Of a DNA stretch of 64,000 bases, positions 32,852-55,797 are shown one piece after another. Positions within the stretch are counted from its first letter, which is position 1. Each line of letters begins with the position of its first letter. A program made the position numbers and the translations under genes. The stretch is from Planctomycetota bacterium (lineage in GTDB: Bacteria > Planctomycetota > UBA1135 > UBA2386): positions 23,703 to 87,702 of the forward strand of contig JADJPQ010000029.1 in assembly GCA_016713175.1 (NCBI GenBank). Direction: 5' to 3'. The notes beneath the pieces are model-generated. The model saw nothing but the letters and a program-made list of their open reading frames with translations. It was not told the origin of the DNA and did no database searches.

Positions 32852-32876
32852 AGTAGCTATTACTACTACTAGTCAT
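32851..32876. promoter_or_regulatory. AT-rich inverted repeat at the trmB-like start (candidate operator/promoter)
   Basis: TAGTAG-CTATTA-CTACTA (32851-32868), followed by ACTAGT. This is the only strongly AT-rich stretch in the region and abuts the ATG at 32851. Confidence 0.4.
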
Positions 32877-32993
32877 GGTGGCCCGCGCGCCAGGACAACT
32901 GTCGCGGAACCTCGCCCGGACCCAGCGTCCGCCCCACTGGCCCTGCCGGCCCCGCGTGCTTGCGCGCAACCGCCGTCTGGCATAGCCTTGCAC

Positions 32994-33005
32994 TGCCAAT
33001 TGGCA
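32994..33005. promoter_or_regulatory. Perfect 12-bp palindrome TGCCAATTGGCA upstream of the antitoxin gene (candidate autoregulatory operator)
   Basis: Palindrome read directly from the sequence. It ends 11 nt before the ATG at 33017 and overlaps the AAGGAA ribosome-binding region. Confidence 0.45.
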
Positions 33006-33016
33006 AACCAAGGAAC

Positions 33017-36186: not shown

Positions 36187-36297
36187 CGCATTTCCGGCCC
36201 TCGCGGCAGAATTGCCCGTGCGCCGCCAGGGATCCCGTTCTTGCCTGGGTAGGCGCCGCCCCCTGCCGGGTGCCCAACACCGAGTTCCCCGAACACC

Positions 36298-37533: not shown

Positions 37534-37556
37534 TCGCCGACGGCGCCCGCCCCGCG

Positions 37557-38159
37557 TCACCGCGGCGGATCGGGCGCATCGAGCAGCGCCGCCAGGCGCG
37601 CCAGGCCGCGGTAGACCAGGTTGCGCACGGCCCCTTCGCTGCGCTGCATCGCCGCGGCCAGGTCCGGATAGTCGACGCCCAGCATCTTGTGCGCGACGAC
37701 TGCCTCGCGGTAGTCGGGCTCGATCCGATCGAATGCCGCCTCGACGCGAGCCAGTTCTTCGCGCGCACTGGCGTGCCGGCTCGGGGTGCAGATCGAAGCG
37801 TAGTGCGACAGCACACTGGCCGCGCCGGCCGAGTCCGCCGCCGGCTGTTCGCGCCGGATGTCGCGCTTGTGCGCCTGCCAGTACTCGCGCCGGTTGATGA
37901 TCTTGTGCAGCGCGTGGCGGGCCAGCCAGTGGCGGAACTGTGGTTCGCCGCGGAACTCGAACCGGTCCAGATCGGCGAGCGCCTCGCCACACACCGACTG
38001 CACCAGATCGCAGATCGACTCGCGGGCCCGCACCGCGGCGCCGGCCTGCAGCCGGACGTAGGCTTCGAGTTGCGGCAAGGCGCGAACCAGCAGGTCGCCG
38101 AGCGCCTGCCGATCGCCGGCCGCGGCGCGCTGCAGCAGGGATGGCGACGGGTCGTTCAC
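37557..38159 (-). CDS. ECF-type RNA polymerase sigma factor
   Basis: Region 2 is DLVQSVCGEAL...FRHWLARHALHKIIN. Region 4 is DYPDLAAAMQRSEGAVRNLVYRGLARL. GTG at 38159 forms a GTGA overlap with the upstream stop. Confidence 0.8.
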   Translation of the reverse strand: MNDPSPSLLQRAAAGDRQALGDLLVRALPQLEAYVRLQAGAAVRARESICDLVQSVCGEALADLDRFEFRGEPQFRHWLARHALHKIINRREYWQAHKRDIRREQPAADSAGAASVLSHYASICTPSRHASAREELARVEAAFDRIEPDYREAVVAHKMLGVDYPDLAAAMQRSEGAVRNLVYRGLARLAALLDAPDPPR

Positions 38160-39661
38160 AGGCTAATGCGCAACAGCCGCGACAGCATCACCGAGTTGCC
38201 GTCGGCTGCGACCCACTGGAAGTCCATCTGCGCGCCCCACAGACCGCCCTGCGGCGGCGACGGAATCGACCAGGGCACGGTCAACGTCGGCGCGGACACG
38301 ATGCCGACCGTCAAGGTCACCGCGGACGCCAACGGCAGGTTCATGCCGTTCGGGCCCGGGAAGCCCAGCAGCAGGCCATACAGTCCTACACCGAAGGTCG
38401 TCGGCAGCCCGCTGACCGACACTGCGTAGGAACTGGTGACCGGCGCCGAGGTCGTCGCGAACACCGAGCCATGCATCGTCGTCGGGAACGGCACGTCGCC
38501 ACGACAGTCCTTCAGATACGCGGCCACCCATGGCGTCGGCCCGCCGTTGCCGGGATCGAGTTCGCACACGGCATCGATGTCACCCGTTCCACCGGCGCCC
38601 GCGACCTTGGCAACCGGCTGAACGCCGTCGGTGCCTGGATCGTAGAGCAACGGCCGGGCCGTCACGAACGTCGGGGGTGTCGGTGCCGGGTGCAGCGCAA
38701 ACCCGGCGACCATCAGTTGATGGCCGAGCAGGTTGCGCGCGGGCGTGCGACGCAGCGACAGCAGCAGCTTGCCGCCACCATCGACCGCCAACGCATCGAT
38801 GTCGTCGTCGAAGTTCAAGCCGAGTTCGGCGTAGGTGGCGAAGACATCCGGCGTCGACCATCCCGCACCGGTCCAGCGCAGGTGCAGGATCGTCGCGCCA
38901 CTTGGCAACGGATGCGTCACCGGCACGCTACCGCGCGTCTGGAACCAGCTCTGGATGGTCGGATTGGTCGTCGTGCTCGCGAACGCGTGGGGCAGCGAGA
39001 AGAAGAAGAACGGGTTCGGGTCGAGCGCGCCGTCGGCGATGCCACTTTCGTAGGCCGGAAAGAACGCGTCGAAGTCGCCCAGCTCTGGCAGCGTCAGCGT
39101 CGCGCGGAAGCCGATCTCGGCGCTGTCGTTCGCCCGTTCGGCAACTGCGATCTCCGCGCATGCCGGCACGACCGAAAGGTCGCTGCCCGGCACGAAGAAC
39201 GTGAACATGTCGCCACCACACCCCTCGGCCCGGCCGTGCTCCTGCACCACCACCGGGGCGTCGCCGCCCGGGGTCTCACGCGTGACCGAGAAGGCGATCG
39301 CACTCCAGCCGCCCCAGCTCGGGACGGTGACCATGCCGGTCGACGGATCGGCCCAGATGCCGTTGTACTGCGAGGACACCGCATCCAGCCGGAAACCGGT
39401 CGGCAGCGGCGACAGCCCGGCGAACAGCGCCGCCATCGTGAAGTCGGGCGCCGCGGTCGGCGTGTCGACCAACGGCGTGAACCCGGCGCGCTTCAGGTAG
39501 GTCCGGCGTTGCACCAGCAACCGACCGTCCGTGGTCGGTCCCGGTCCACGCGTCTCGTCGTTGCCGACGACGAAGATGGCCGGCAACCCGACGAACGGAC
39601 CGGTACTGACCTGGGCGCCGAGGCCCACGGCAAACACCCCGATGACCAAGGGTATGCGCAT
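38156..39661 (-). CDS. Secreted hypothetical protein (weaker member of the C-terminal-domain set)
   Basis: ATG at 39661 is preceded by AGGAG. Signal peptide MRIPLVIGVFAVGLGAQ. No known domain recognised. Confidence 0.65.
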   Translation of the reverse strand: MRIPLVIGVFAVGLGAQVSTGPFVGLPAIFVVGNDETRGPGPTTDGRLLVQRRTYLKRAGFTPLVDTPTAAPDFTMAALFAGLSPLPTGFRLDAVSSQYNGIWADPSTGMVTVPSWGGWSAIAFSVTRETPGGDAPVVVQEHGRAEGCGGDMFTFFVPGSDLSVVPACAEIAVAERANDSAEIGFRATLTLPELGDFDAFFPAYESGIADGALDPNPFFFFSLPHAFASTTTNPTIQSWFQTRGSVPVTHPLPSGATILHLRWTGAGWSTPDVFATYAELGLNFDDDIDALAVDGGGKLLLSLRRTPARNLLGHQLMVAGFALHPAPTPPTFVTARPLLYDPGTDGVQPVAKVAGAGGTGDIDAVCELDPGNGGPTPWVAAYLKDCRGDVPFPTTMHGSVFATTSAPVTSSYAVSVSGLPTTFGVGLYGLLLGFPGPNGMNLPLASAVTLTVGIVSAPTLTVPWSIPSPPQGGLWGAQMDFQWVAADGNSVMLSRLLRISL

Positions 39662-39729
39662 GACGACTCCTGGACAAAACGACACCGACAAGCGAGACGA
39701 ACGCTGGTCGGCAGCATACCCATCCCCGG

Positions 39730-42369
39730 TCAACGCGGGCGGTCCGGCTCGATCTCGCGGCACAACCGCAGGCCCGAACTGGCGCCAGCCGTGGTCACCG
39801 CCACCGCGTTGCGCAGCGTCGCTCGCGCCGCCAACCAGGTCGACATGAAGGAACCGCCGCGCAGATCCCGGCGCGATGGTTCCAGCACCTCCCCGGCCCG
39901 AACCGGTTCGACGGCGCCGTCACCGTGGCGCGGTCGCGCGTCGACGTACTTGTGGTACGGGTCGGCCGTGTACTCCCTGACGTTGCCGAGCATGTGATGC
40001 AACCCGAATGGGTTGGCCCGCAGCGAGTCCACCGGCGCCGTCAGCGGCCAGGTGTCATCGAACGGCACTGCCCCGCCCTCCCCCTGCGGGACGCCTTTGC
40101 CCCGCACGAAGGATTCATCCGCCAGGTTCTCAGCGCCCTCGATCGGCGTCACCGAGTAACCGGTCCACCACGGTGCGTCGCCATGGGCCCGTGCCGCATG
40201 CTCCCACCGCGCCGACGACGGCAGACAACCACCGAGTCGTCGCGCGGCTTCGGCTGCCGCCCGCCAATCGATCGTGTTGACCGGATGCACCGGTGTCACC
40301 CCACGCGCCCCCGAACTCTCGGCGCTGAACTGTGACGGATTGCTGCGAAACAGCCGCCCCCACTGTGCCTGCGTCAATTCGTACTTGGCCAGGAAGTACG
40401 GCTCCAGCCGAACGCGCAGCGCGCGCCCAGGCGAGCCCCCTTCCGCTGTCGCTTCGTACTCCGAGTCGTGCGGTGCATACGGCAGCCGAGCATCGGTCGG
40501 CGCCACGCCGAGCGTCACCTCCCCACCCGGAATCAGCACCAGCACGACCCCAGTGTCCGCCTCGATCCGCCACCGCCCATCGACCCGCTCGGGCAACCGT
40601 TCGTCGGGTTGCAGCAGCGCGAACTCCCACAGACCGGACGTCGGATCCGGCCCCAGTGGCCACAACCCGACCTGCGGCAGCAGATGCAAGCCACCATAGC
40701 GCTCGGCAATCGCCGCGCTCGCGTTCGCCCAAGCCGCGGACTGTTCGTCGACGCTGCGCTGTCGCAGCGAAGCGGCAAAGGCACGGCGGCTGGCGACCGC
40801 CGTGCTCACCCCATCGGTCTGCAGCCGCGTCAACTCGGCCAGCAGCAGACCGATCTGGCGGTGCAAGAACGCATCGCGCGGCGATACCTGCTGCAACTCA
40901 CCGTCGACGACCACACCACCGGCCGCCACGTCGTCGCGTTGCGCTTCGAACCTCGGTCGTTGCGCCACGATCGCCTCGTACTCGGTGAGCCAGCGATCCA
41001 TCGCCCCCAACTGCGCCGGCAGCGCCGGCCAGGTGTCGGTCGGCGCACGCGCCACCAGTCGTTCGAGGTCGAGGGCGACCTGCAGCGTGTCGAAACGATC
41101 GAGGCTCCGCACCGCCTGCGCGCGGGACTCGAGGGACACGACCAGCGCCACCAACAACCCGAGAACCGTCAGCAGCGACGCCGCCACCACGACGCGATGG
41201 CGGCGGACGAATTTCCGGACGTGATAGAACGTCGACGGCGGGCCGGCCATCACCGGTCGGCCGGCCAGATGCCGCCGCAGATCGGCCGCCAGCTCGGACA
41301 CCGACGCGTAACGTTCGTTGCGTTCGCGGGCGATCGCCTTGCCGACGATCCAATCGAGGTCACCGCGCAGTTGTCGTTCGAGTGCGGCCACCGTGGTGCC
41401 CGTTGCCGCCGTGATCGCCTCGGCGATGCCCGGTTCACGCAATCGCCGACTCGGCGGCAACGGCGTCCCGACCGCGATCGCCTGTTGCATCGCCAGGAAC
41501 CCCTGCTGCCGCAACGTCGCGAAGTCGAACGGCAGGACGCCGCACAGCAGTTCGTAGGCGATCGTGCCGAGCGCGTAGACATCGGCCCGCGTGTCGACCC
41601 CGTCCGGCCCCGGCAGCGCCTGCTCCGGGCTCATGTACTCCGGGGTGCCGAGTACCTGCCCCGCTTCGGTCAACATCGCGCCGGCCAGCGGTTCCTGCAG
41701 CGCCTTGGCCAGGCCGAAGTCGATCACCTTGACCACCGGCCCGGTGCGTTCGCAGACCAGCACGTTGCCGGGTTTCAGATCGCGATGCAGGATGCCGCGC
41801 TGATGCGCATGCTGCACGGCGTCGCACAGCTGCAGCAGCAGGTGCAGACGTGCAGGCACGGCCAAGCGCCGCTCCTTGCAGAACACCTGCAATGGCTGGC
41901 CGTCGACGAACTCCATCGCAAACCACGGTCGGCCGTCGTCCGTCGTACCCGCCTCGAACACCTGGGCGATGCCGGGGTGGCTGAGCTGCGCCAGAGCCTG
42001 TCGTTCCGCCTGGAAGCGGGCCAGCGCATGCCCGCCGCCGAGCCGTTCGTGCATCAGCTTCAGCGCCACCAGACGCCGGACCGGTTGCTCCTGATCGGCC
42101 AGCCACACCTGCCCCATCCCGCCGGCCCCGAGTTCGCGCCGCAGCGTGAACGCGCCGATGCGGCGATCGGCGATCGTCGGCTTGTCGAGCAGCCCCATCC
42201 GCTGCAGCGCGGTGTAGCGCCGTCGCAGGGCGTCGGCATGCTCGGGATGGCGCGCGCACAGTTCCGGCAACGGATCCCCACCGCCGTGGCTGAACCGCGC
42301 CAGACAATCTGCCAACAACGTCTCCAACGACGGCGGATCGCGATCGGGGACGGACGACGCGGAGGCCAT
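39730..42369 (-). CDS. Ser/Thr protein kinase with a TM segment and a C-terminal FGE-sulfatase (SUMF1-like) domain
   Basis: GAGGMGQVWLA, HRDLKPGNVL, DFGLAK, SPEQ. C-terminus RGGSF...LRLCRE, of FGE type. ATG at 42369. Confidence 0.85.
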   Translation of the reverse strand: MASASSVPDRDPPSLETLLADCLARFSHGGGDPLPELCARHPEHADALRRRYTALQRMGLLDKPTIADRRIGAFTLRRELGAGGMGQVWLADQEQPVRRLVALKLMHERLGGGHALARFQAERQALAQLSHPGIAQVFEAGTTDDGRPWFAMEFVDGQPLQVFCKERRLAVPARLHLLLQLCDAVQHAHQRGILHRDLKPGNVLVCERTGPVVKVIDFGLAKALQEPLAGAMLTEAGQVLGTPEYMSPEQALPGPDGVDTRADVYALGTIAYELLCGVLPFDFATLRQQGFLAMQQAIAVGTPLPPSRRLREPGIAEAITAATGTTVAALERQLRGDLDWIVGKAIARERNERYASVSELAADLRRHLAGRPVMAGPPSTFYHVRKFVRRHRVVVAASLLTVLGLLVALVVSLESRAQAVRSLDRFDTLQVALDLERLVARAPTDTWPALPAQLGAMDRWLTEYEAIVAQRPRFEAQRDDVAAGGVVVDGELQQVSPRDAFLHRQIGLLLAELTRLQTDGVSTAVASRRAFAASLRQRSVDEQSAAWANASAAIAERYGGLHLLPQVGLWPLGPDPTSGLWEFALLQPDERLPERVDGRWRIEADTGVVLVLIPGGEVTLGVAPTDARLPYAPHDSEYEATAEGGSPGRALRVRLEPYFLAKYELTQAQWGRLFRSNPSQFSAESSGARGVTPVHPVNTIDWRAAAEAARRLGGCLPSSARWEHAARAHGDAPWWTGYSVTPIEGAENLADESFVRGKGVPQGEGGAVPFDDTWPLTAPVDSLRANPFGLHHMLGNVREYTADPYHKYVDARPRHGDGAVEPVRAGEVLEPSRRDLRGGSFMSTWLAARATLRNAVAVTTAGASSGLRLCREIEPDRPR

Positions 42370-42406
42370 CCCCTGACCATACCGCCGCGGCAACCGCGCG
42401 AAACCG

Positions 42407-42435
42407 GGTGACAGATCCCGGTCTCGGCTGCTGGT
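42407..42435 (+). promoter_or_regulatory. Bipartite motif GGTGACAG-N13-CTGCTGGT (candidate promoter), copy 1
   Basis: Lies 51 nt upstream of the ATG at 42486. The same architecture occurs at 48559-48587 and 49575-49603 on the minus strand. Confidence 0.45.
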
Positions 42436-42485
42436 TCCGGTGGAGCCGGCTCCCGGCCCCATCCCCTGATCAACCGAGGTCTGCG

Positions 42486-43646
42486 ATGAACCGTCTGCCT
42501 GGTCTGTGCGTACTCTTGTCCGTTCCTTTGGCCCACCTGACCGCCCAGAACCTGCTGAGCTACCGCCCGAACGGCCCCCTGAGCCGCCTGCTCGAGGCGC
42601 CGGCGGCGAGCCCGGCCTGGGTGCCCCCCGGGGGCGGCCCGGGCGTCGGCGTCGGCGTGATGAACGGCCCGCCGCGGCCGGTGCCGCCGGCGCTGCTCGG
42701 CGCGGTCGAGGTCGACAGCACCAGTGGACTGGTGTTCTCCACCAACGGGCAGCTCAGCATCGAGCGTTCGTTCTACCCACGTCTGGGCTGCACGCCGCCG
42801 GCAGCGCTGCCCTCGCTGCCGATACCTGCGCCCGTTGGCTCCGTGACTGGCATGGCATTCGATCCGGTGCTTCACCACCTGTTCTTGACCAACGGCGGAA
42901 TGATCTTCGAGGTCGACCCGGCCGCCGGCATGACCATCGTGTGCATGTGGCCGGCGGCGATCCTGAACATCCTGACCGGGCTCGACTTCGACCCCGCGCA
43001 TCCCGATCGCCTGATGGCTGTGACTTCGGCTGGGGAAGTGGCGATCTACAGCCGCTGCGGCATGCTGCTGTCGGCGGTCGGCCCGGGCTACCCGTTTCCG
43101 GGTGGTAACGCCGTCGGCATTGCCCGCGACCGATCGGACTGCGTTGCCTCGTCGGTGTACGTGCTGTGGGACAACGGCGATACCTACGACCACGGCCTCA
43201 GCGCGCTGCACCACGCTGGCGGCGGTGGCCGTGTCGGCCTGACCTACGCTGCGACGCCGACCTACCTGCCGAGCGCCGGGGCCTGCGGCGGCAGCGATCC
43301 GGACGGTCGGATTGCGCAGTTCGCGGTCGAAGACGAACCCGGCTTCGCCATCGAGGTGTGCGGCCTGGCGGCGGGCTTGCCGTTCGCGGCGCTGTTGATC
43401 GACCTGCCGCCGGCACCGATCGGGGTCGCGCTGCCGGGCATCTGCGGCACGACGTGGGTACCGATCCCGGCACTGTTCGTCGGCTTCGCACCGGTTGCCC
43501 CGGGCGCGACGACCGCATCGGTACCGTTGCCGCTGCCGCCGGGCCTGTGCGGCCTGCGGCTCTACGCGCAGTGGTTCGCGCCGTGTGCCGGCCCGTGTGG
43601 GTATGCGACCTCGGACGGCATGCAACTCGAGATCTCGCGACGGTAG
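42486..43646 (+). CDS. Secreted protein, paralog-like to 36298-37533, with the recurrent C-terminal domain
   Basis: Signal peptide MNRLPGLCVLLSVPLAHLTAQ. VTGMAFDP...LFLTNGG resembles VTGLEHC...ILDSFGN of 36298-37533. C-terminus contains GACGGS...LPGICGTTW...LYAQW. Confidence 0.65.
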   Translation: MNRLPGLCVLLSVPLAHLTAQNLLSYRPNGPLSRLLEAPAASPAWVPPGGGPGVGVGVMNGPPRPVPPALLGAVEVDSTSGLVFSTNGQLSIERSFYPRLGCTPPAALPSLPIPAPVGSVTGMAFDPVLHHLFLTNGGMIFEVDPAAGMTIVCMWPAAILNILTGLDFDPAHPDRLMAVTSAGEVAIYSRCGMLLSAVGPGYPFPGGNAVGIARDRSDCVASSVYVLWDNGDTYDHGLSALHHAGGGGRVGLTYAATPTYLPSAGACGGSDPDGRIAQFAVEDEPGFAIEVCGLAAGLPFAALLIDLPPAPIGVALPGICGTTWVPIPALFVGFAPVAPGATTASVPLPLPPGLCGLRLYAQWFAPCAGPCGYATSDGMQLEISRR

Positions 43647-43718
43647 GGCGAAACCCGGCGAGGCGCCGGGGCTAACATCGAAGGCGCCGCGGGCCCGGGT
43701 CGGCGCCAACAACGAGCC

Positions 43719-46508
43719 GTGAACGACGTCGACGAACCGGATGGCACGCTGGACGAAGCCGATGCCCGGCGCCTGGAAAGCCTGGTCGCGATGTGCCTTG
43801 CCGCTCACGAAGCCGGCGATGCATCTGCTTTCGAACGAACCCAGGCCAGCGCCCAGCGCCTGCGACCCTGGCTGCAGCGTCGACTGTCGACGTTGCAGCG
43901 GCTCGGTATGACGACCGCGACATCGCCGATGAACATCGGTCCGTACCGCCTGGTCCGCGTGATCGGCGAGGGCGGCATGGGGACGGTCTGGCTTGCCGAA
44001 CAACAACAGCCCGTGCGACGACAAGTCGCGGTCAAAGTGATCCGGGCTGGCCTGAACAGCGACGCGCTGCTCGCTCGTTTCGCCGGCGAACGCCAGGCGC
44101 TGGCGATGATGGATCACGACGGGATCGCCAAGGTGTTCGACGGCGGCACCACGCCGGCGGGGGCGCCCTACTTCGCGATGGAACTGGTGCACGGCGAGCC
44201 GCTGACGGCGTTCTGCGATCGCCATCGACTGGACCTGCGGGCGCGGATCGGCCTGCTTCGCCAGGTCTGCGCGGCAGTCACGCACGCTCACCAGAAAGGG
44301 GTGATCCACCGCGATCTGAAGCCCGGCAACATGCTGGTGAGTGGCGATGCAGCCAACCCACGGGTCAAGGTCATCGACTTCGGACTCGCCAAGATCCTCG
44401 CCGACGGCGTGGCCGAGGGGAACGCGACCAGCCCCGGTCACCTGCTCGGGACTCCTGGCTACATCGCGCCCGAACAAGCGGGCCCGGCCAACCTCGATCT
44501 CGACATCCGCGTCGACATCTGGTCCCTCGGCGCCGTGGCCTACGAACTGTTGGCCGGCTTGCAGCCGTTCTCGATGCCGCGACGGCGCGACGGCGGGCTC
44601 GCCCAGCTGCAGCGCCGATTGCAGGCGGGCCCGGTGCCGGCCAGCAGTCGCTTCGCCGCCCTGCCGGTGGCCACGGCATCGACGATCGCGACCCACCGAC
44701 GAACGTCGACGACCAGATTGCGGCGCTCGCTGCACGGCGACCTCGACTGGATCCTCAACCTGGCCTTGGACCCTGATCGCGAGCGCCGCTACCCCTCGGC
44801 CGCAGCCTTCGCCGAAGACCTGCAGCGTCATCTCGACGAACTGCCGGTGATCGCCGGCCCACCGGGAACGGCATACCGACTGCGCAAAGCGCTGTCCCGC
44901 TATCGTCACGTCGTGGCCGTGGCGGCGTTGGTATTGGTCACCCTGCTGGCCGGACTGCTGACCACGTGGCGGCAGTATCGCCGCGCCGAGCGCGAGGCCA
45001 CCTCCAACGCCAGGCTGGTGCAGGAACTGCATGCGGCCATCCGTGCTGAGACCGCTGCCAGGGTCGAAGTCGAGAACCAGAACCGGTTGCTGGAGGAGGT
45101 CGTCAGCTTTCTCGGCGAGCAGCTCGGTGACGTCGATCCGGCCGCAATCGGTCGCGGCTGGCGGCATGCCCTCCTGGCCGCCGTCGACGAACCGCAGCGC
45201 GCGGCGGTGACCGAACTGCTGGCGGACGTACCGTTCACCGACCTGGCGGTCTCGTCGCTGTGCGACCACCAGTTGGCCCATGCGCTGGTCGCGATCGACC
45301 AACGGTTCGCGACCCAGCCGTGTACGCGAGCGCAACTGCTGCAAACCGTCGCGGACGTCCTGCGCTCGATCGGAGCCAACGCGGCAGCCATCGCGCCGCA
45401 AACCACGGCGGCCACCTTGCGGCAGGCCGAACTGGGCGACGGCCACCCGGACACCCTGAGGAGCCTCGGCAACCTGGCCCTGTTGTTCCACGAACTGGCG
45501 CAGCCAGACGCGGCGGCGCCGCTGTTCGCGCGCGCGTTCGCGATCAGCCAGCGCACGCTTGGCGACGAGCATCCCGCCACACTGCTGGCCCGGGCCAATT
45601 TCGGCAGTTTCCTGCTGGCCAGCGGTGAGCTTGCTGCTGCCGAGGAGCATCTGGTGGAAGTTCTGCGGCAACGGACCTTGCACGGCGTCGACGCCGACAC
45701 CACCGCCTCGGCCCATCAGGCCATGGCCAGGCTGCGCGCCGCACAGCGACAACCGCAGGCGGCGCGTACGCATGCCGAAATGGCGCTGGCCGCCCGGCGA
45801 CGCGCGCTGGGCAACGACCATCCGGCCACGCTCGCGGCGCTCGTCAACGTCGGCGCACTGCAACGCCAGACCGGTGACCTGGATGCGGCGCACACGACGC
45901 TCGTCGACGCGGTCGATCGACTCGGTCGACAACGTGGCCAGGAACACCCGGAGACGGCAACCGCCCGGCACAACCTGGCCGCGGTGCTGGCGGCGCGCGG
46001 CCAACTCGATGCGGCCGTTGCGCACTACGAAGCCGCCGCCGCGGTGCGCCTCGCCACTCGCGGCCGGGCGCATCTCGAGACCCTGACCACCGCGATCAAC
46101 CTCGCCGGCGTACTGCTGCGCTTGCACCGCCCCAAGCGGGCGATCGACCTGCTGACACCAACCACCGCTGCCGCCCGTCGAGTGTTGGTCGGCGGCCATC
46201 TGCAGCACCGTGTCCTGTGGTTGCGCACGCTCGGCACCGCACACGCTCAGATCGGCACCCCGGCTGACCTGGCGGCGGCGAGTGACTGCCTGAGCGAAGC
46301 GCAGGAGCTGTTCGAGGCCAGTCCGATCGCCGACCCGCAGCAGGCACACCGCAACGCGCGTCAGCTGGTTGCGGTGTACTCGGCCCGGCGGCAGCACGAA
46401 TCGACGCCAGAGATCGAACAGGGATTGGAGCGTTGGCGTCGGCGAGTGGCCGACCCGACAGCCGGGTCAGCGGAAGTCAAGAGCGCCAGCGGACATCGGC
46501 CTCAGTAG
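43719..46508 (+). CDS. Ser/Thr protein kinase with a TM segment and C-terminal TPR repeats
   Basis: GEGGMGTVWLA, HRDLKPGNML, DFGLAK, APEQ. Repeated ...HPDTLRSLGNLA... and ...HPATL... TPR-like units. GTG start at 43719. Confidence 0.85.
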   Translation: MNDVDEPDGTLDEADARRLESLVAMCLAAHEAGDASAFERTQASAQRLRPWLQRRLSTLQRLGMTTATSPMNIGPYRLVRVIGEGGMGTVWLAEQQQPVRRQVAVKVIRAGLNSDALLARFAGERQALAMMDHDGIAKVFDGGTTPAGAPYFAMELVHGEPLTAFCDRHRLDLRARIGLLRQVCAAVTHAHQKGVIHRDLKPGNMLVSGDAANPRVKVIDFGLAKILADGVAEGNATSPGHLLGTPGYIAPEQAGPANLDLDIRVDIWSLGAVAYELLAGLQPFSMPRRRDGGLAQLQRRLQAGPVPASSRFAALPVATASTIATHRRTSTTRLRRSLHGDLDWILNLALDPDRERRYPSAAAFAEDLQRHLDELPVIAGPPGTAYRLRKALSRYRHVVAVAALVLVTLLAGLLTTWRQYRRAEREATSNARLVQELHAAIRAETAARVEVENQNRLLEEVVSFLGEQLGDVDPAAIGRGWRHALLAAVDEPQRAAVTELLADVPFTDLAVSSLCDHQLAHALVAIDQRFATQPCTRAQLLQTVADVLRSIGANAAAIAPQTTAATLRQAELGDGHPDTLRSLGNLALLFHELAQPDAAAPLFARAFAISQRTLGDEHPATLLARANFGSFLLASGELAAAEEHLVEVLRQRTLHGVDADTTASAHQAMARLRAAQRQPQAARTHAEMALAARRRALGNDHPATLAALVNVGALQRQTGDLDAAHTTLVDAVDRLGRQRGQEHPETATARHNLAAVLAARGQLDAAVAHYEAAAAVRLATRGRAHLETLTTAINLAGVLLRLHRPKRAIDLLTPTTAAARRVLVGGHLQHRVLWLRTLGTAHAQIGTPADLAAASDCLSEAQELFEASPIADPQQAHRNARQLVAVYSARRQHESTPEIEQGLERWRRRVADPTAGSAEVKSASGHRPQ

Positions 46509-46570
46509 GCCGATCGCCACCGGGCCGACAAGCCTGCTGCCGCGGGCCCGGCCGATCGTTCATCGTTCCC

Positions 46571-46592
46571 GCCCGGCAGTGGTCTGTCGGGC
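46571..46592. terminator. Hairpin between convergent genes (possible bidirectional terminator)
   Basis: GCCCGGCAG (46571-46579) pairs with CUGUCGGGC (46584-46592): 9 bp including one G-U, with a UGGU loop. It abuts the stop of the minus-strand gene. No T-tract. Confidence 0.4.
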
Positions 46593-48509
46593 CTAGTAGG
46601 CAGTCCCCAGGGTGCTGACCTCGATCAGCACGGCGTTGGTCAAACCAATGCCACATGGCTGACTGCCATCGATGGTCGCTCCTTGCAGCACGAGTTCCAA
46701 CCCGAACCCGGGATGCGGCAGCTGCATCGTCTGCAACAACCCGACCGTCAGCGGCTGATCGAACACCAGAGCGGAGAACGGGGAACCCGAGCAGCCGAGC
46801 AGTTGCTGCGGACCGGGCACACCGAACCCGGCCAGCAGGAATGTCGCGGGTGCGGTCGAGTCGATCTGCACTGGTTGGCCAGCCAGCACCGTGACGCGCC
46901 GGCCGAGGCCGCCGATGCTGCCGTTCACCGTCAGCGGTGCGCCGGGCAGAGTGCCGGCGGCCGCGCCGACAAACAGCGTCGGCAGTGGGTCGACGCCGAG
47001 ACCCCGTACCACCAGGTGTCCCGGATTGGCCTTCCAGTTGCTGTTGGCCAGCGTCATGCCTTCGACCCAGTCCATCGCGGTCGGTGACACGCGATAGCGG
47101 AGGACCACCTGCTCGGCCGTGACCATCTGGAACTGCCCGTTGCCAACGGCGATCTCGAACTGCGCCGCGGCACCGAAATCGAGAGTCGCGAACAGGCCGC
47201 GCGACAGGATCGACCCGGGATGGTCGTCTTCACCCTGCTTGTAGTCGACAATGATGATGATGTCGCCGTGGATGATGTAGCCATCGCGAACGACCGGTTC
47301 GTCGGGATTGACGGTGCGACTCGCCACCCGCGCAACCTCGACACCGCCGGAATAGCAGAAGATGTCCGCGACGACCGGCGCGGTGCCGAACACCGCCGAG
47401 AAGTCCTGGCGAATCGCCGTAGCGTTGCCCTCCCTGGTAAACGCCAGACGCCCGAGTTCCTGACCCGACTGGCCACCGCGGGCGCCAAGAACGGTCAGTT
47501 CGAAGCGATCGCCGCTGTCGATCGGCAGACCAATGGGCAAGTCGAACATCGCGCACCGCGCGCGGCCGAAGTCGATGGCGATTCCATCACCGGGAGCCTG
47601 CAGGTTCTGCACCTGCAGATCCTGGCCGTGGACCAGCGCCAGGTTGCCGGTGCCAACCGTCGTCACGCCAAAGCCGGCGACCGCACTGCCGGCATCGACG
47701 ATATCGAAGTGCGACATGGTGTCGCTGGTCGTGAACACGCTGACCTGGTCGAACGCGGTAACGGGCACGAGATCCCGTGAGATGATCCGCACCATGTCGG
47801 CGTGGATCGGCGGCTGCGTGTCGACCGTGATTGGCACCTCCTGCTGGAACACGAACGACTCGCCCACCGAGGGATCCGGGAACGGTGGCGTCCACCACCA
47901 CCGCGGTGACGTCCGACACCACGACGACGGCGGCTCGAAGACGAGGTGATCCGGCACCGCCGTCGGCGGCAGTTCGATCTCGAAGTCGTGCCCCGGTCCG
48001 AAGTCCATCTGGCCGACGATCTGGTTGCGTGCAAACAGCACCACCGAGACGCCATTGGCCTGAACCGCCGGCCGGATCGGACGAACGCGCCAGCCGGCAT
48101 GGTCGCGCGCAATGCGGGTCCGATCCAGCGGCGACAGCGCGACTCCTTGCCGGACACCGCGCAGCGGCACGAACAACGACGTGCCGATCGGCACGTTGCC
48201 GAGGTCGAGCACCAACGCCAGCCCCAAGCACCCTCGCGACGTGAACGAGGCACCCCAGGCCGAACCCGCCGCCGCGGCCGGATCCCGGCTCGCCCGCACG
48301 AGTTCCCCGGTGCGCGTGGCGGCCGCAAGCTTCTGCACGAGACCAGCGGCATAGGGGCCAACGTCATGCCCGGTGAACCGGGTGGCCTGCGCGGCGAGTT
48401 CGTCGCCGCCCAAAGCCATCCCCAGCCACAGCGCGGCCAGGCTGCCAATGCGCGAACGATCGCCCGACAACAAGCACGCCGGGGATCCCTTGCACCGATT
48501 CGTAGACAT
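46593..48509 (-). CDS. Large secreted hypothetical protein with the recurrent C-terminal domain
   Basis: ATG at 48509. Hydrophobic leader IGSLAALWLGMALGG. C-terminus LLGCSGSPFSALVFDQP...LVLQGATIDG...GLTNAVLIEV. Confidence 0.6.
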   Translation of the reverse strand: MSTNRCKGSPACLLSGDRSRIGSLAALWLGMALGGDELAAQATRFTGHDVGPYAAGLVQKLAAATRTGELVRASRDPAAAAGSAWGASFTSRGCLGLALVLDLGNVPIGTSLFVPLRGVRQGVALSPLDRTRIARDHAGWRVRPIRPAVQANGVSVVLFARNQIVGQMDFGPGHDFEIELPPTAVPDHLVFEPPSSWCRTSPRWWWTPPFPDPSVGESFVFQQEVPITVDTQPPIHADMVRIISRDLVPVTAFDQVSVFTTSDTMSHFDIVDAGSAVAGFGVTTVGTGNLALVHGQDLQVQNLQAPGDGIAIDFGRARCAMFDLPIGLPIDSGDRFELTVLGARGGQSGQELGRLAFTREGNATAIRQDFSAVFGTAPVVADIFCYSGGVEVARVASRTVNPDEPVVRDGYIIHGDIIIIVDYKQGEDDHPGSILSRGLFATLDFGAAAQFEIAVGNGQFQMVTAEQVVLRYRVSPTAMDWVEGMTLANSNWKANPGHLVVRGLGVDPLPTLFVGAAAGTLPGAPLTVNGSIGGLGRRVTVLAGQPVQIDSTAPATFLLAGFGVPGPQQLLGCSGSPFSALVFDQPLTVGLLQTMQLPHPGFGLELVLQGATIDGSQPCGIGLTNAVLIEVSTLGTAY

Positions 48510-48558
48510 CCAAACACCTCATGGGTTGATGGGTGCACGACAACCGGCACCCGACGAC

Positions 48559-48587
48559 CTCAGCAGGCGTTCGGCCCGTTCGTCACG
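48559..48587 (-). promoter_or_regulatory. Bipartite motif CGTGACGA-N13-CTGCTGAG (candidate promoter), copy 3
   Basis: Minus-strand reading. Its CTGCTG half lies 50 nt upstream of the ATG at 48509. Confidence 0.4.
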
Positions 48588-48613
48588 CGGGTTCGGCCGA
48601 AAACCGGATCCGA

Positions 48614-49549
48614 TCAGCGCGCCAGCCGCAGGCCGTTGCTGGTCAGCACCCGGCCGTCCGCCAAGAAGGCCACACCCTGCACATGCAGTGCGACCCCGGG
48701 AGGCGGCGCGAGATCCGGCAAGTTCAGCGTCGCGATGCCTGCCAGCGTCGGAACCGCGGCGACGAACGAGGCCTCGGTCAACTGTTGGCAGTACGGTGCC
48801 CACGGCAGCGGCATCGCCATCGACGTCAGCCCGGCGATGAACAACACCGGCTCGGCGCCACCGGACTGGCACCGCAGGCGAATCTGTCCCTCGCTCGGCC
48901 GATCCCCGGTCAACGCCATGCACGCAGAGCCATACGGAACCAACGGCGGCGGCTCGACAGCAACCGACAGATCGACCTCGGTCCGTTCGACGATGGCGTA
49001 GAAGACAGCCACGCCGCCGGATGAAGCGGCCATCCGCACTACGGTGCCGCCTGCCGGGACGCGGACAACGAACTCACGCCGAACCTCAGCCGTGGCCCCC
49101 GACCCTGAGTACTCGAGCACGCCATCGACCCCGACATCGATGGTCACACTGCCGCCGAACAGAGTGCCGCCGTTGGTCAGGTGGCGCAGCCGCAAGCGCG
49201 TCCAGCCGGTAGCGGTCTCGGCGATCTGCAGGTCGACCTGGGCAGAACATTGGAACTGACCACTGCCGCTGGTCCAGCTCAGCAAGGCGCTGCCAGTCAC
49301 GCGAAGCCCGAGTGCGACCGTGCCGATCGGCTGCGCCGGCAGCCACCCGACGCCAGCCGACGCCGTCGATTGGACGCCAACCGCGGAGACCGCGGCACCG
49401 CCGGCCGGCAGCGGAGCCGGGCCGGAGCGGTCGAGGACACCGTTGGCATCCGCCACCAACGTCGCCGCAGCCGACACCACGGGTGCCTGACCGGTGGTGG
49501 GCCGCAGGCAGAGGGAGCACAACAACGACACGGCAACTCGCAACTTCAT
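48614..49549 (-). CDS. Secreted hypothetical protein with the recurrent C-terminal domain
   Basis: ATG at 49549 gives the signal MKLRVAVSLLCSLCLRPTTGQA. C-terminus YGSACMALTG...LHVQGVAFLADG...SNGLRL. Confidence 0.6.
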   Translation of the reverse strand: MKLRVAVSLLCSLCLRPTTGQAPVVSAAATLVADANGVLDRSGPAPLPAGGAAVSAVGVQSTASAGVGWLPAQPIGTVALGLRVTGSALLSWTSGSGQFQCSAQVDLQIAETATGWTRLRLRHLTNGGTLFGGSVTIDVGVDGVLEYSGSGATAEVRREFVVRVPAGGTVVRMAASSGGVAVFYAIVERTEVDLSVAVEPPPLVPYGSACMALTGDRPSEGQIRLRCQSGGAEPVLFIAGLTSMAMPLPWAPYCQQLTEASFVAAVPTLAGIATLNLPDLAPPPGVALHVQGVAFLADGRVLTSNGLRLAR

Positions 49550-49574
49550 GGTTCGCCTCGGGTGGTACGACCCC

Positions 49575-49603
49575 ATCAGCAGGCCCAAGGAGCAACTGTC
49601 ACC
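49575..49603 (-). promoter_or_regulatory. Bipartite motif GGTGACAG-N13-CTGCTGAT (candidate promoter), copy 2
   Basis: Minus-strand reading. It lies 26 nt upstream of the ATG at 49549, within the divergent region shared with the ECF sigma gene. Confidence 0.45.
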
Positions 49604-49719
49604 GACATTCGCGCCGATCCAGTGTTGGCCTGCTCGCAACGGGTCGGGCTCCGCCGGTGACTGGGGCGTCCCGCCAGATCTTGCGAGGCACGCGGCAGAC
49701 CTTACCCTCTGCGTCGCCC

Positions 49720-50259
49720 ATGCCCGCCCCTTCACGGCTCGACGACCTGCGCGGCTGGTTCGAACAGCACGCGTCGGTACTGTACTGTTGGCTGCGCGCC
49801 CGCGTCAAACCGTCGCTGCGCGCCGATTTCGACGCCGAGGACCTGCTGCAGGAAGTGTGGCTGCGAGCCGTGCGCGTGCTGCCGGACACGCCGGTCGCCA
49901 ACCCGCGCGCCTGGCTGCTGTCGATCGCCGGCTACGTGTTCCTGGAAGCCATGCGCGGATGGCAGCGACGCGCGCGACTCCTGGCGGTGAGCGCGGATGG
50001 CAGCCAGGTCGACGTCACCGACGAAGTCACGACGATGACGCGCCGGGTCGCGCGCGACGAACTGCGCCAGCGATTCTTCGCGTCGCTCGACAACCTCGAC
50101 GACGACGATCGCCAATTGCTGCTGCAGCATGGCCTCGAAGGCCGCTCCTTGGCACAGGTGAGCGAACGGCTCGGCATCTCGACCGAGGCCGCCTACAAGC
50201 GCTGGCAGCGGTTGCGCGCCCAGCTGATGCAGCTCGGTTCACCGGCGGACCTGATGTAG
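49720..50259 (+). CDS. ECF-type RNA polymerase sigma factor
   Basis: Region 2 is DLLQEVWLRAV...AWLLSIAGYVFLEAMR. Region 4 is RSLAQVSERLGISTEAAYKRWQRLRAQL. ATG at 49720. Confidence 0.8.
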   Translation: MPAPSRLDDLRGWFEQHASVLYCWLRARVKPSLRADFDAEDLLQEVWLRAVRVLPDTPVANPRAWLLSIAGYVFLEAMRGWQRRARLLAVSADGSQVDVTDEVTTMTRRVARDELRQRFFASLDNLDDDDRQLLLQHGLEGRSLAQVSERLGISTEAAYKRWQRLRAQLMQLGSPADLM

Positions 50260-50448
50260 CTCAGCGACACCGCCGCCCAGGCCGGCCTCGCGACGTCGGC
50301 GCTGCGCTCGTTCGTATTCCTCGGCCACTGCGGTCGCCGCGCGTGGGAACTGCTGCAGGTAATGCGCCAACGGTCGATCCCGGCCGGCGGCGAGATCCGC
50401 CGCCAGCCGATCCAGGAAGTTCAGCAGCTCGAGTGGATCGTCGTTCAA
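50239..50448 (-). CDS. Small (69 aa) protein resembling the N-terminal leader of the two Ser/Thr kinases
   Basis: TTG start with GGGAG 5 nt upstream. High GC3 over the first 45 codons or so. PLELLNFLDRLAADLAAGRDRPLAHYLQQFP compares with SLETLLADCLARFSHGGGDPLPELCARHP of the kinase at 42369. It overlaps the sigma gene 3' end by 21 nt (convergent). Confidence 0.4.
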   Translation of the reverse strand: MNDDPLELLNFLDRLAADLAAGRDRPLAHYLQQFPRAATAVAEEYERAQRRRREAGLGGGVAELHQVRR

Positions 50449-50475
50449 ACGAGTCTCCCGCTCGCGCGGGGCTGG

Positions 50476-50769
50476 TCAGCGCAGCCGGCGGGTGATCGCG
50501 AGGATGTTGCCACCGGACAGCGTCGAGGTCAGTTGTGTCGGCGCGCCAGTGGCGGCATCGAGGTCGTAGATGCGGACCTGGTCGAAGTTGCTGACGAACA
50601 GCTTGCGACCCAGGTCCGACACGGCGAGGCACTTGGCACCCGGGAACGGCGCCAGCAGTTCGGCGGTGAACGGAATCGGGGCGCTGGCAGCGACGTAGGC
50701 ACCATCGCCCTCCGCTGCCTCCAGCACCAGCAGCTGCCAGCCCGACGTGGGGAACGCCGGCGCCGCCAT
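50476..50769 (-). CDS. Hypothetical protein (97 aa)
   Basis: Very high GC3 (about 88% by hand count). The opposite-strand ORF is Arg-rich shadow. An alternative ATG lies at 50826. Confidence 0.45.
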   Translation of the reverse strand: MAAPAFPTSGWQLLVLEAAEGDGAYVAASAPIPFTAELLAPFPGAKCLAVSDLGRKLFVSNFDQVRIYDLDAATGAPTQLTSTLSGGNILAITRRLR

Positions 50770-51010
50770 CAGACACGACCGTTCGCCCGCGGCGGCGCGT
50801 CGGCGGTGAACGTGCGTGCGTTGCATCGTGGAACTCCGGTGGTGACGGATACGGTGCGGGTGCGCACCGACCTCGTTGAGCAGTGGCACCGGACGCCACC
50901 GACTGGACAATCCGGGCCAACGATTTCCGCGCTCCCCCCATGGGCGGGCGCCCGCCGCTATCATCGTCGACCTGCGCGGTATCCATGCCATCGCCGCGCA
51001 AGGAGGCTGC

Positions 51011-51551
51011 ATGGCGTTCGGTTGGTTCCGGCAGCGCCGGTCCGCACTGGCCCTGCCCGCAGAGGATCCCCGTTCCAGCATCCCGCTGTTGCACGATCGC
51101 GTGCAGGCGGCACTCGGCAACCCCGGCACGTATCTGTGCCGACCGCAACCCGGCGGCGAATTGTTGCGCGGACTCGGCGCGACCACCCCGCTGCTGCGCT
51201 GGCAATGGCAATCGGGTCATCGCGATGAACTCGCGGTGCTCGCTGCCAGCGCCGCCGAGTCGTGGCTTTGCATCGAACGCAACCGCAACGGCGAGACGAT
51301 CTGCCAGGTCGGTGGCCTGCTGCCCGCTGCGGTCGTCGCCGATCCGTGGCGCCTGGCGAACACGCTGCAGAAGCTGTTCGACGCCAATCTGCGACTCGAC
51401 CCGCCACTGCTCGACAGCGCCCCGGACGCGATCACGTGCAGCGAACGGCTGCCGGCCCGCCACGCCGAGGCGTTGTTCGCGATCGCCTTGCGGCAGTTGC
51501 CCGGGCCCGACCGGGTCGACGGCGCGGCGTTCGCGGACTGGTGGGCGCGCG

Positions 51552-51577
<26 letters not shown>
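51011..51577 (+). CDS. Hypothetical protein
   Basis: Strong AGGAGG (51001-51006) lies 4 nt before the ATG at 51011. Balanced composition. The 3' end overlaps the aspS 3' end by 26 nt (convergent). Confidence 0.55.
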
Positions 51578-53354
<1,777 letters not shown>

Positions 53355-53532
53355 GTCGCTACTTGCCTTGCCAACCAGTGGGGCGGCGAGTCGTATCCGC
53401 GCTGGGGGATCCGGTCCACGGCGAACCGTGTGCAGTCCCACCGTAACCAAAGCCGATGGCCGTGATATTGTCCGTTGCGTCGGAGGACTCCTGCAGCCGG
53501 CGCTCCTGCTTCCCACGGTCCGTATCCTGCCG

Positions 53533-55797
53533 ATGCCAACGCCGTTCTTGCGTGGCCACCTGCCACCACACGCCTTCGGCGTGGGTCTGCTGACTGTTCG
53601 TACGCTGCTTGGGCAGGCCGATTGGCAGGAGCAGGTCCGGTTCGTCCCGATCGCGGACGCCGCCTGCGCGCTCGACCCGGTGCGCAACCAGATCGTGGTG
53701 TTCGGCGGCGACGACGGCGCCCGCCGGGTCGCCCACACCTGGGTCTGGAACGGCACCGGCTTCGACCGGCGCGCACCGACGACCTCGCCAGCCGCCCGTT
53801 CGGGCCATGCCGCCGCATTCGACGCGACCCGGCAGCGGCTGGTCCTGTTCGGCGGCGCCGGCACCCAAGGCGACCTCGCCGACACCTGGCTCTGGGATGG
53901 GACCAACTGGGCGCAGGCCAGCCCTGCCGGCGCACCGCTGGCGCGGCACGGCCACGCCATGGCCTGGTTGAACGGTGCCAACCGGATCGTGCTGTTTGGC
54001 GGCGCACGGACGGCGGCGCTGCGGCAGGACACCTGGGAATGGAACGGCACGACCTGGACGCAGCGTTCGCCGGCCCATGTACCGCCAGCGCGCGAACGCG
54101 CGGCGATGGCCACCCAGGGCTCCGGCCAACCCCTGTTGTTCGGTGGCCAAGGCGGCGGTGGCCCGTTGGCGGATACCTGGTCCTGGAACGGTGTCGATTG
54201 GGTCGGCCAGGCGGCCGGTCCGTCGGCTCGCGCCGGCGCGACCTTGACGGCGACCCCGGGCGGCGGCCTGGTCCTGGCCGGCGGGGCCGATGCTCTCGGA
54301 CTGCGCACCGACACCTGGACCTGGAACGGCTCGAACTGGAGCGCACGCACGGTCGCCGGCCTGCAGCCGCGGCAGGGTGCCACCAGCGCGTTCGATCCGG
54401 CGCTCGGCCAGGCATTGGTGATCGGCGGCGTCAGCACCGGCAATGCCCGGCTCGACGATGCGGTCAGCTACACCGGCTCCACGTGGCAGACCCGGACCGT
54501 TGCCGACGACCCGCTGGCGCGCAGCGGCCACGCGATGTGCATGGATCCGCAACGCAGCCGGCTGGTGCTGTTCGGCGGTGCCGACGGCGCCGCCCGGACC
54601 CTCGGCGACACCTGGGAATGGGATGGCTTGCGGTGGCACCTGCTGCCGACCGCGATCGCGCCGACGCCCCGCCAGTTCCACGCCCTCGCCTTCGATCCGA
54701 TCCGCAACCGGACGTTGCTGTTCGGCGGTCGCGATCTCGGCGGTGGTCGCGACGACACCTGGGAGTGGGATGGTTTCGCCTGGAACCTGCTACAGCCGCC
54801 GATCGCGCCGCCGCCACGGCAGTTCCATGCCCTGTGCGCCGCGGGCTCGGCAACGCTGCTGTTGTTCGGCGGCATCGACAACGCCTTCGCGTCGCTCGGT
54901 GACACCTGGCAGTGGAACGGCAGCACTTGGACCGAACTGTTCGTGCCGGGGCCGAGTCCACGCGAATACCACGCGATGGCCTGGGATCCCGAACGGGCCC
55001 AGGTCGTACTGTTCGGCGGCCGCGACAGCACCGCGGCGCGCAACGACACCTGGACGTTTGCCAACGGCGTCTGGACGCTCCGCACGCCCGCGGCGTCGCC
55101 GTCCCCACGCCTGTACCACAGCATGACCTACGCGCAGGAGCGCGACCGGGTACTGCTGGCCTTCGGCCTCGACGCCGCGTTCCTGCCGCTGGCCGACACC
55201 TGGGAGTGGAACGGCGCGACCTGGCAACTGCGGACCACCGGCACGGCCGTGGAAGCACGCTACGGCGCGGCCCTGGCCCACGAACCGACGGCGAAACGGA
55301 CCTTGCTGTTCGGCGGCAGCAATCTGACGGCGGCGTTCCCGCACACGTGGATCTACCGCTCGCAACCACCCGCCGACTTCACGACCTATGGCACCGGCTG
55401 CGCCGGCTCCGCCGGCGTGCCAAGGCTTGGTCCGGCCGGCAACAGCCGGCCGTGGCTCGGCGATCTGTTCACCGTGCAGATCGACAATCTGCCCGCGACC
55501 GCCGGTGCGATGCTGATGGTGTTCGGGTTCTCCGACCAGACCTGGAACGGACAACCGCTGCCGATCGCGCTGGCCTCCTTCGGGCTGCCCGGCTGCCAGG
55601 CCTGGTTGTCGATCGACGAGTTCTTCCTGTCGCTGCACACCGGCTCGACGCACCGGTTCGCCTGGGTGATCCCCAACCAGACGAACCTGCTCGGCGTGCG
55701 CTACCACAAGCAGGCGCTGGTGCTCGATGCTGGCGCCGGCAATCCGTTCGGCGGCTCGATCAGCAACGCCGGCACCGCGACGCTCGGCCGGCGCTGA
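53533..55797 (+). CDS. Kelch-repeat (beta-propeller) protein with the recurrent C-terminal domain
   Basis: More than 10 repeats of the type R.GHA...D..R.R.VLFGG....L.DTWEWDG..W. C-terminus YGTGCAGSAGVPRL...GFS...PLPIALASFGLPGC. ATG at 53533. Confidence 0.8.
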   Translation: MPTPFLRGHLPPHAFGVGLLTVRTLLGQADWQEQVRFVPIADAACALDPVRNQIVVFGGDDGARRVAHTWVWNGTGFDRRAPTTSPAARSGHAAAFDATRQRLVLFGGAGTQGDLADTWLWDGTNWAQASPAGAPLARHGHAMAWLNGANRIVLFGGARTAALRQDTWEWNGTTWTQRSPAHVPPARERAAMATQGSGQPLLFGGQGGGGPLADTWSWNGVDWVGQAAGPSARAGATLTATPGGGLVLAGGADALGLRTDTWTWNGSNWSARTVAGLQPRQGATSAFDPALGQALVIGGVSTGNARLDDAVSYTGSTWQTRTVADDPLARSGHAMCMDPQRSRLVLFGGADGAARTLGDTWEWDGLRWHLLPTAIAPTPRQFHALAFDPIRNRTLLFGGRDLGGGRDDTWEWDGFAWNLLQPPIAPPPRQFHALCAAGSATLLLFGGIDNAFASLGDTWQWNGSTWTELFVPGPSPREYHAMAWDPERAQVVLFGGRDSTAARNDTWTFANGVWTLRTPAASPSPRLYHSMTYAQERDRVLLAFGLDAAFLPLADTWEWNGATWQLRTTGTAVEARYGAALAHEPTAKRTLLFGGSNLTAAFPHTWIYRSQPPADFTTYGTGCAGSAGVPRLGPAGNSRPWLGDLFTVQIDNLPATAGAMLMVFGFSDQTWNGQPLPIALASFGLPGCQAWLSIDEFFLSLHTGSTHRFAWVIPNQTNLLGVRYHKQALVLDAGAGNPFGGSISNAGTATLGRR

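Follow-up and report, generated by a model that had tools for sequence, protein, structure and literature searches.

The housekeeping sigma-70 factor uses promoters with TTGACA-N16-18-TATAAT-like hexamers, and those recognised by extracytoplasmic function (ECF) sigma factors belong to other types, for example, GGAAC-N16/17-CGTC, or GTCACA-N16-CGTC for mycobacterial SigJ and ECF41. ECF sigma factors are usually autoregulated, and group-level promoter predictions usually rely on this property. ECF sigma factors linked to kinases are abundant in Planctomycetes. The present analysis deals with a stretch of 64,000 nucleotides (nt) from a Planctomycetota bacterium (assembly GCA_016713175.1, contig JADJPQ010000029.1, positions 23,703 to 87,702), referred to as the window in its full length, in which a two-block motif, GTGAC-N15-CTGCTG, stands upstream of three genes encoding the secreted proteins P3, P5, and P6. 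The three sites are probably ECF-type -35/-10 promoters (group 4 of the sigma-70 family), most likely read by a putatively kinase-activated sigma factor, sig1. The latter is encoded in an operon with the membrane kinase STK1 and another secreted protein, tail4, and this STK1-tail4-sig1 system lacks the autoregulation on which promoter predictions are usually based.

Hallmarks of ECF promoters are an AAC in the -35 element and a CGT in the -10 element (PMC8103513). In kinase-regulated ECF sigma factors, the DAED motif is replaced by uncharged residues, and a phosphorylated Thr (ECF43) or Ser (ECF59/60) restores the charge for binding to the RNA polymerase core (PMC8103513, PMC8999054, PMC13147305). 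The change from DAED to S/T is a stated hallmark of kinase-activated ECF sigma factors (PMC8103513, PMC8999054), and the groups named as kinase-associated are ECF43, ECF59-62, ECF217, ECF267, and ECF283 (PMC7826278). In the literature searched, no experimentally defined promoter or regulon was found for the planctomycetal kinase-linked ECF groups.

A sequence-only reading of the window had described three copies of a bipartite motif with a 13-nt spacer between the octamers, as well as lone GTGAC words near 49656 and 50851. A sequence scan confirmed all of these, the three copies being exact matches to SGTGACRR-N13-CTGCTGR, with GTGAC-N15-CTGCTG as invariant core. The sites are as follows.

42399-42433, + strand: site 1, with CGAA at 42399-42402, N5, GTGAC at 42408-42412 (-35-like), N15, and CTGCTG at 42428-42433 (-10-like), within the 116 nt that separate the divergent STK1 and P3 genes; octamer form GGTGACAG-N13-CTGCTGG at 42407-42434.
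49577-49611, - strand: site 2, with CGAA at 49611-49608, GTGAC at 49602-49598, and CTGCTG at 49582-49577, in the divergent gap between P6 and the gene of a second sigma factor, sig2; octamer form GGTGACAG-N13-CTGCTGA at 49603-49576.
48561-48595, - strand: site 3, with CGAA at 48595-48592, GTGAC at 48586-48582, and CTGCTG at 48566-48561, in the 104-nt gap after P6; octamer form CGTGACGA-N13-CTGCTGA at 48587-48560.

All three copies are intergenic, lie on the same strand as the downstream gene, and are oriented towards it. From the end of the core to the ATG, there are 52 nt for P3 (42486), 27 nt for P6 (49549), and 51 nt for P5 (48509), or 50, 25, and 49 nt, respectively, when counted from the end of the octamer form. 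A GAGG ribosome-binding site is found 6-7 nt ahead of each ATG, and public gene calls match the starts of two of the genes (386 and 311 amino acids). In 3/3 window copies, CGAA precedes GTGAC by exactly 5 nt, and with intervals of roughly one and two helical turns, the CGAA, GTGAC, and CTGCTG blocks come to lie on the same face of the DNA. When the window was scanned with CGAA-N5-GTGAC-N15-CTGCTG (15 specified positions), only the three sites matched without mismatch (15/15), none matched with one or two mismatches, and the background appeared at three to four.

The evidence that carries the finding comes from the orthologues of P3. This protein has eight homologues, at 44-55% identity, in metagenome-assembled genomes (MAGs) of other Planctomycetota, and seven independent loci were compared (L118, L121, L122, L124, L126, L127, and L128). 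In 7/7 of them, GTGAC-N15-CTGCT(G/C) occurs on the strand of the gene, about 40-55 nt ahead of the ATG, and together with the window copies this makes ten sites at which the spacing is invariant (GTGAC-N15-CTGCTS), located 27-54 nt ahead of the ATGs. An alignment of nine sites on GTGAC gives near-maximal information in both blocks, with the spacer and the flanks at background, and L128 holds the same core. Six of the seven loci were scanned whole (63 kb, both strands), and the core was found once per locus, always upstream of P3 (6 matches observed vs 0.09 expected). De novo enumeration of 4+4 dyads, with gaps of 0-30 nt, in seven upstream regions (those of the window and of six loci) yielded only the four sub-dyads of this motif as common to all seven; in the 200 shuffles that served as null, no dyad was shared by more than 5 regions. 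Judging from these alignments, the core is under purifying selection and constitutes a clean phylogenetic footprint, because it is conserved in 7/7 orthologous loci while the spacer and flanks have diverged. We take this conservation as decisive sequence evidence that the motif is non-random.

In the window alone, the evidence for the motif is suggestive, not decisive. None of 100 shuffles contained any match to the exact pattern, but the reasoning of this test is circular, the pattern having itself been taken from the same three copies. An unbiased search for the best three-way gapless alignment in the 300-nt 5' regions of 41 genes was not significant, and the motif did not stand out in it. 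A score of 10.64 (null 9.72 +/- 0.49), reached by 8/150 shuffles, was obtained for a different triple, presumably due to chance; for the motif triple, a restricted search with a closely similar scale gives 10.38. A window-wide dyad permutation test was not significant either. With only the seven upstream intergenic regions of the sigma/kinase cluster as input, the best-scoring triple was P3/P5/P6, and 0/91 shuffles reached it (p ~0.002 by a Gumbel fit). In a leave-one-out test, the consensus of any two copies placed the remaining copy best, or tied-best, among the 128,000 positions of the window. The sequence-only reading had held the fixed-spacing pair to be unlikely by chance; for the window alone this is too strong, given the 41-gene search, and it took the orthologues to establish it. 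A motif that is marginal in one 64-kb window, thus, became decisive through orthologous upstream regions, which is a methodological point. A reading of the three sites as repeats or parts of a mobile element was rejected, as a repeat search of the window returned only GC-rich families at chance level and did not single them out.

The genes around the sites were mapped with Pfam and NCBIfam (locus tags IPK26_30055 to 30070), as follows.

42486-43646, + strand: P3, secreted protein of 386 amino acids with a signal peptide ending ...LTA|QN; conserved target gene of the motif.
43719-46508, + strand: STK2, membrane Ser/Thr kinase with a Pkinase domain, a transmembrane segment, and TPR repeats, 72 nt 3' of P3.
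46593-48509, - strand: P5, secreted protein of 638 amino acids, 3' of site 3.
48614-49549, - strand: P6, secreted orphan protein of 311 amino acids, 3' of site 2.
39730-42369, - strand: STK1, Ser/Thr kinase with a Pkinase domain, a transmembrane segment, and an FGE-sulfatase domain; first gene of the STK1-tail4-sig1 operon.
38156-39661, - strand: tail4, secreted protein of 501 amino acids, between STK1 and sig1.
37557-38159, - strand: sig1, ECF sigma factor, last gene of the STK1-tail4-sig1 operon.
49720-50259, + strand: sig2, second ECF sigma factor, with a canonical DAED, divergent from P6.

P3 has no match in Pfam or NCBIfam. The N-terminal part of the protein appears beta-propeller-like in an AlphaFold2 model (predicted local distance difference test, pLDDT, of 69.8), with generic WD40-type and beta-propeller matches at a template-modelling (TM) score of ~0.3, and these structural matches gave no functional lead. 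Residues 53-155 of P3 resemble residues 13-116 of tail4 (BLASTP E=2e-5), which indicates a shared N-terminal region. P5 is nearly an orphan, with three remote relatives among 1.84 billion representatives, and P6 found only itself among 5.8 billion protein clusters. For one relative of P5 (L116), the contig DNA upstream seems, by eye, to code for the N-terminus of an unrelated protein, which makes this upstream region uninformative. Another, from a different metagenome (L117, 1-2979), is a full-length homologue (P0006) that has a convergent ECF sigma gene next to it, as well as the N-terminal part of a Ser/Thr kinase encoded divergently. The motif is absent from this locus, and its arrangement, therefore, means that the pairing of such secreted proteins with sigma and kinase genes recurs.

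A C-terminal tail shared by the three secreted proteins, which the sequence-only reading had also proposed, is visible by eye in P3, P5, and P6. It is weakly supported: pairwise BLASTP comparisons gave E values of only 0.016-0.4, whereas a hidden Markov model (HMM) built from the three tails picked up a fourth protein, tail4, at E=0.003. (A/G)-Q forms the end of the predicted signal peptide in each of the four secreted proteins and in all P3 orthologues, and the mature proteins would, therefore, start with Gln. In the operon, the stop codon of tail4 overlaps the GTG start of sig1 (GTGA, 38156-38159, - strand), an overlap that suggests translational coupling. Further away in the window, the frame of an aspartyl-tRNA synthetase (51552-54443, - strand) is open for ~390 codons ahead of its first domain and overlaps the frame of a Kelch-repeat gene (53209-55797, + strand); the extension is probably an over-long open reading frame (ORF) in GC-rich DNA and not a real one. 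For the gene of an Xre/MbcA/ParS-type antitoxin (32873-33466, + strand), no toxin partner with a RES domain is obvious among the annotated ORFs nearby.

The genes that accompany P3 in other genomes point to sig1. In L124 and L127, an operon made up of STK1 (50% identity), tail4 (34-37%), and sig1 (61-64%) counterparts faces the P3 orthologue in convergent orientation. In L126, those of STK1 (53%), tail4 (43%), and the start of a sigma gene come after P3, all on one strand. L128 has a divergent arrangement of P3 and an STK1-like kinase (58%), as in the window, and in L118 another such kinase (56%) is one gene away from the P3 orthologue. The operon, comprising a kinase with an FGE-sulfatase domain, a secreted protein of ~500 amino acids, and an ECF sigma factor, is, thus, kept across several uncultured Planctomycetota, with P3 in varying orientation (window 37557-42369, - strand; L124 7407-11717; L126 4039-8447; L127 2065-6176). 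The P3 orthologue loci contain no counterparts of sig2, P5, or P6, and no DNA-binding regulator other than a sigma factor is conserved near P3 in them; in L122, a two-component system adjoins the P3 orthologue. The 535-nt gap 5' of the P3 orthologue of L126 holds an uncalled sigma-like ORF (2274-2639, - strand), 40% identical to residues 41-158 of sig1, possibly an additional sigma gene, possibly a remnant.

The sigma factor itself (200 amino acids; 112 bits against TIGR02984, the nearest NCBIfam model, below the 184-bit cut-off) bears the mark of a kinase-activated ECF. In region 2.2, it reads S-I-C-D where DAED is expected, and its orthologues read S-(I/L)-x-D; sig2 has the canonical D-A-E-D. 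Among the best 120 of at least 390 members of the sig1 family, the first DAED position is Ser or Thr in 110/120, and the sigma-4 helix RSEGAVRNLVYRG is near-invariant (kept in 104/120). These counts suggest that the sig1 family is a large family of phosphorylation-activated ECF sigma factors beyond ECF43. Pfam and NCBIfam detected no anti-sigma domain in the neighbouring genes, though tail4 has no assigned role. Between sig1 and sig2, no similarity is detectable, and it is, therefore, unlikely that one motif serves both.

Promoter function is suggested by the geometry of the motif: asymmetric blocks, fixed spacing, a constant orientation on the strand of the gene, and a position 27-54 nt ahead of the ATG. 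It is also favoured by the confinement of the extended pattern, which in the window is complete (15/15) at the three sites and reaches at most 10/15 upstream of any other gene of the cluster. In the mechanism proposed here, GTGAC(R) would act as the -35 element and CTGCT(G/C), 15 nt further 3', as the -10 element, with transcription starting about 6-8 nt after CTGCTG and giving leaders of about 20-45 nt that carry the GAGG. At site 2, CTGCTG is only 27 nt from the ATG, and the start of transcription would, therefore, have to fall directly after it. The membrane kinase STK1 would sense an external cue, possibly with its predicted extracytoplasmic FGE-sulfatase domain, and phosphorylate the Ser of the S-I-C-D of sig1. 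Phosphorylated sig1 would then be able to bind the core polymerase, and the holoenzyme would transcribe P3 and, in this genome, P6 and P5. STK2 is possibly co-transcribed with P3 from site 1.

The leaders and the operon have features of their own. GC-rich stem-loops start 3-9 nt after CTGCTG in 8/10 leaders and are individually weak (z -0.8 to -2.2). They are located at 42439-42463 (+ strand) and 48552-48531 (- strand) in the window and in the leaders of L118, L121, L124, L126, L127, and L128, and often end in GGCCAT(T/C)CC. Hairpins are often seen at the 5' ends of mRNAs, which speaks for the proposed promoter, and these are possibly 5'-terminal stabilising hairpins. The STK1-tail4-sig1 operon, which has no copy of the motif, apparently relies on an ordinary promoter of the TAnnnT type: 6-20 nt ahead of STK1-type start codons, there are -10-like TAnnnT hexamers (TATGGT, TAGAGT, and TACAAT), found at 42381-42376 in the window (TATGGT, - strand), about 625-640 in L128, and about 590-610 in L118. 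An ordinary promoter of this kind may, thus, drive the kinase/sigma operon, and in the window and L128 the mRNA may be leaderless or nearly so.

Several observations weigh against reading the sites as sig1-dependent promoters. No copy of the motif stands upstream of sig1, sig2, STK1, STK2, or tail4, where the best match reaches at most 10 of the 15 positions of the extended pattern; this counts against the proposal because ECF sigma factors are usually autoregulated. The ECF hallmarks, AAC within the -35 box and CGT within the -10 box, are lacking at 10/10 sites. In L121 and L122, the motif is kept, and the stretch examined has no sigma gene. Conversely, L129, a locus chosen blindly as a prediction test, contains a sigma factor of the sig1 family (65% identity), and within the 15.6 kb around it, there is no kinase, no P3, and no motif. 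Sites 2 and 3 adjoin sig2 and not sig1, and neither has orthologues for comparison. Outside the window, the CGAA position reads AGAA in the closest orthologue (L118) only, and nothing similar is found in the others; the conserved core, therefore, does not include CGAA, which may be a coincidence or an upstream element specific to this lineage.

Some of these points would fit a promoter read by another sigma factor, either sig2 or the product of some other part of these genomes. Sites 2 and 3 stand beside or after the gene that diverges from sig2, the examined flanks of the motif in L121 and L122 are free of sigma genes, and L129 has the sigma factor alone. Yet no orthologue of sig2 lies beside any P3 orthologue, whereas those of sig1 and STK1 are repeatedly linked to P3. 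The nearest relatives of sig2, sought in a single scan of representative genomes and another of the Joint Genome Institute (JGI) metagenomes, reach only 45% identity, and their loci are other contexts, with neither homologues of the secreted or tail proteins nor the motif. A different sigma factor is, on balance, unlikely. The binding site of a conventional transcription factor, an activator or a repressor, with the promoter elements elsewhere or overlapping, appears less likely still. The departure of the boxes from the canonical AAC/CGT consensus (PMC8103513), the placement of the three blocks on one DNA face in the window copies, and the two-component system of L122 all speak for such a site. 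However, GTGAC and CTGCTG show neither dyad nor direct-repeat symmetry, no other columns are conserved, and sigma factors are the only DNA-binding regulators conserved near P3; at site 2, moreover, the 27 nt to the ATG would force the site to overlap the promoter itself. Nor is a sigma-70-type promoter detectable in the gaps. In the three intergenic regions, none was predicted, the single predicted site in 37000-52000 being elsewhere, and a sigma-70 promoter reading of the motif was, hence, rejected. This agrees with the sequence-only reading, for which the motif did not look sigma-70-like. That reading had left the choice between an ECF promoter and a dimeric regulator site; the former is best supported (asymmetric core, fixed spacer, orientation, position ahead of the start codons, kinase-ECF linkage, and gaps free of predicted sigma-70-type promoters), and the latter found no support, the two blocks forming neither an inverted nor a direct repeat. 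A sigma-54 reading was rejected by sequence, the 15-nt spacing of the blocks being incompatible with GG-N10-GC.

It is very improbable that the motif is transcribed and acts within the 5' leader as part of a cis-regulatory RNA element. The hairpins recurring just 3' of it are in favour of this, but no Rfam match was obtained at E<=1 in 36000-52000, and the three sites yield a weak consensus fold (-5.95 kcal/mol), with the conserved blocks unpaired. In addition, GTGAC and CTGCTG lack complementarity to each other, and in the spacer there is no conservation and no covariation. Pure coincidence in GC-rich DNA has the smallest probability, which we regard as close to nil. It would be consistent with the non-significant window-wide triple search and with the many spurious repeat families that such DNA yields. 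Against it stand the cluster-restricted test and, above all, the 7/7 orthologous upstream regions with diverged flanks and the 0.09 matches expected in the six loci scanned whole; for site 1, these orthologues effectively refute chance.

The best supported account of the motif, as far as sequence comparison can tell, is, thus, that of an ECF-type promoter with non-canonical boxes, controlling a small regulon tied to a kinase-activated planctomycetal sigma family, which would be a fairly ordinary kind of regulatory site. A more far-reaching version is tentative and, in our estimation, has the odds against it: the motif would be the first defined target promoter of the sig1 family, and P3 its conserved output gene. 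An FGE-sulfatase-like receptor-kinase switch, with non-canonical boxes and no autoregulation, would then drive a secreted beta-propeller protein that may feed back on the extracytoplasmic domain of the kinase. The analysis supplies a conserved and testable candidate promoter (GTGAC-N15-CTGCTS), a target gene (P3), and a candidate kinase/sigma pair. It, thus, offers an entry point for the study of kinase-linked ECF regulation in uncultured planctomycete lineages.

Compared with known ECF promoters, the motif has the same general build, namely two short asymmetric boxes separated by a fixed, non-conserved spacer (15 nt, or 16-17 nt when counted to the inner bases). It stands directly ahead of a short predicted leader and of genes for exported proteins, with ECF sigma genes adjacent. 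Unlike them, it has GAC instead of AAC in the -35-like box and CTGCT(G/C), without CGT, as the -10-like box, and no autoregulation site is seen upstream of the sigma factor's own operon. The closest likeness in the -35 box is with SigJ and ECF41 promoters (GTCACA vs GTGACA in the window, with a comparable spacer). This is a resemblance only: the central base differs, the -10 box is unrelated, and sig1 does not carry the ECF41-type C-terminal extension. With regard to the kinase-activated ECF sigma factors (ECF43 EcfP/PknT, EcfK/PknS, and the planctomycetal ECF59-62 and ECF217), the window operon differs by the additional secreted protein of ~500 amino acids between kinase and sigma factor. It resembles them in the co-encoding of sig1 with a membrane Hanks-type kinase, the replacement of DAED with Ser/Thr at the first position, and the planctomycete host, and it may also share the lack of an anti-sigma factor, no recognisable one being present.

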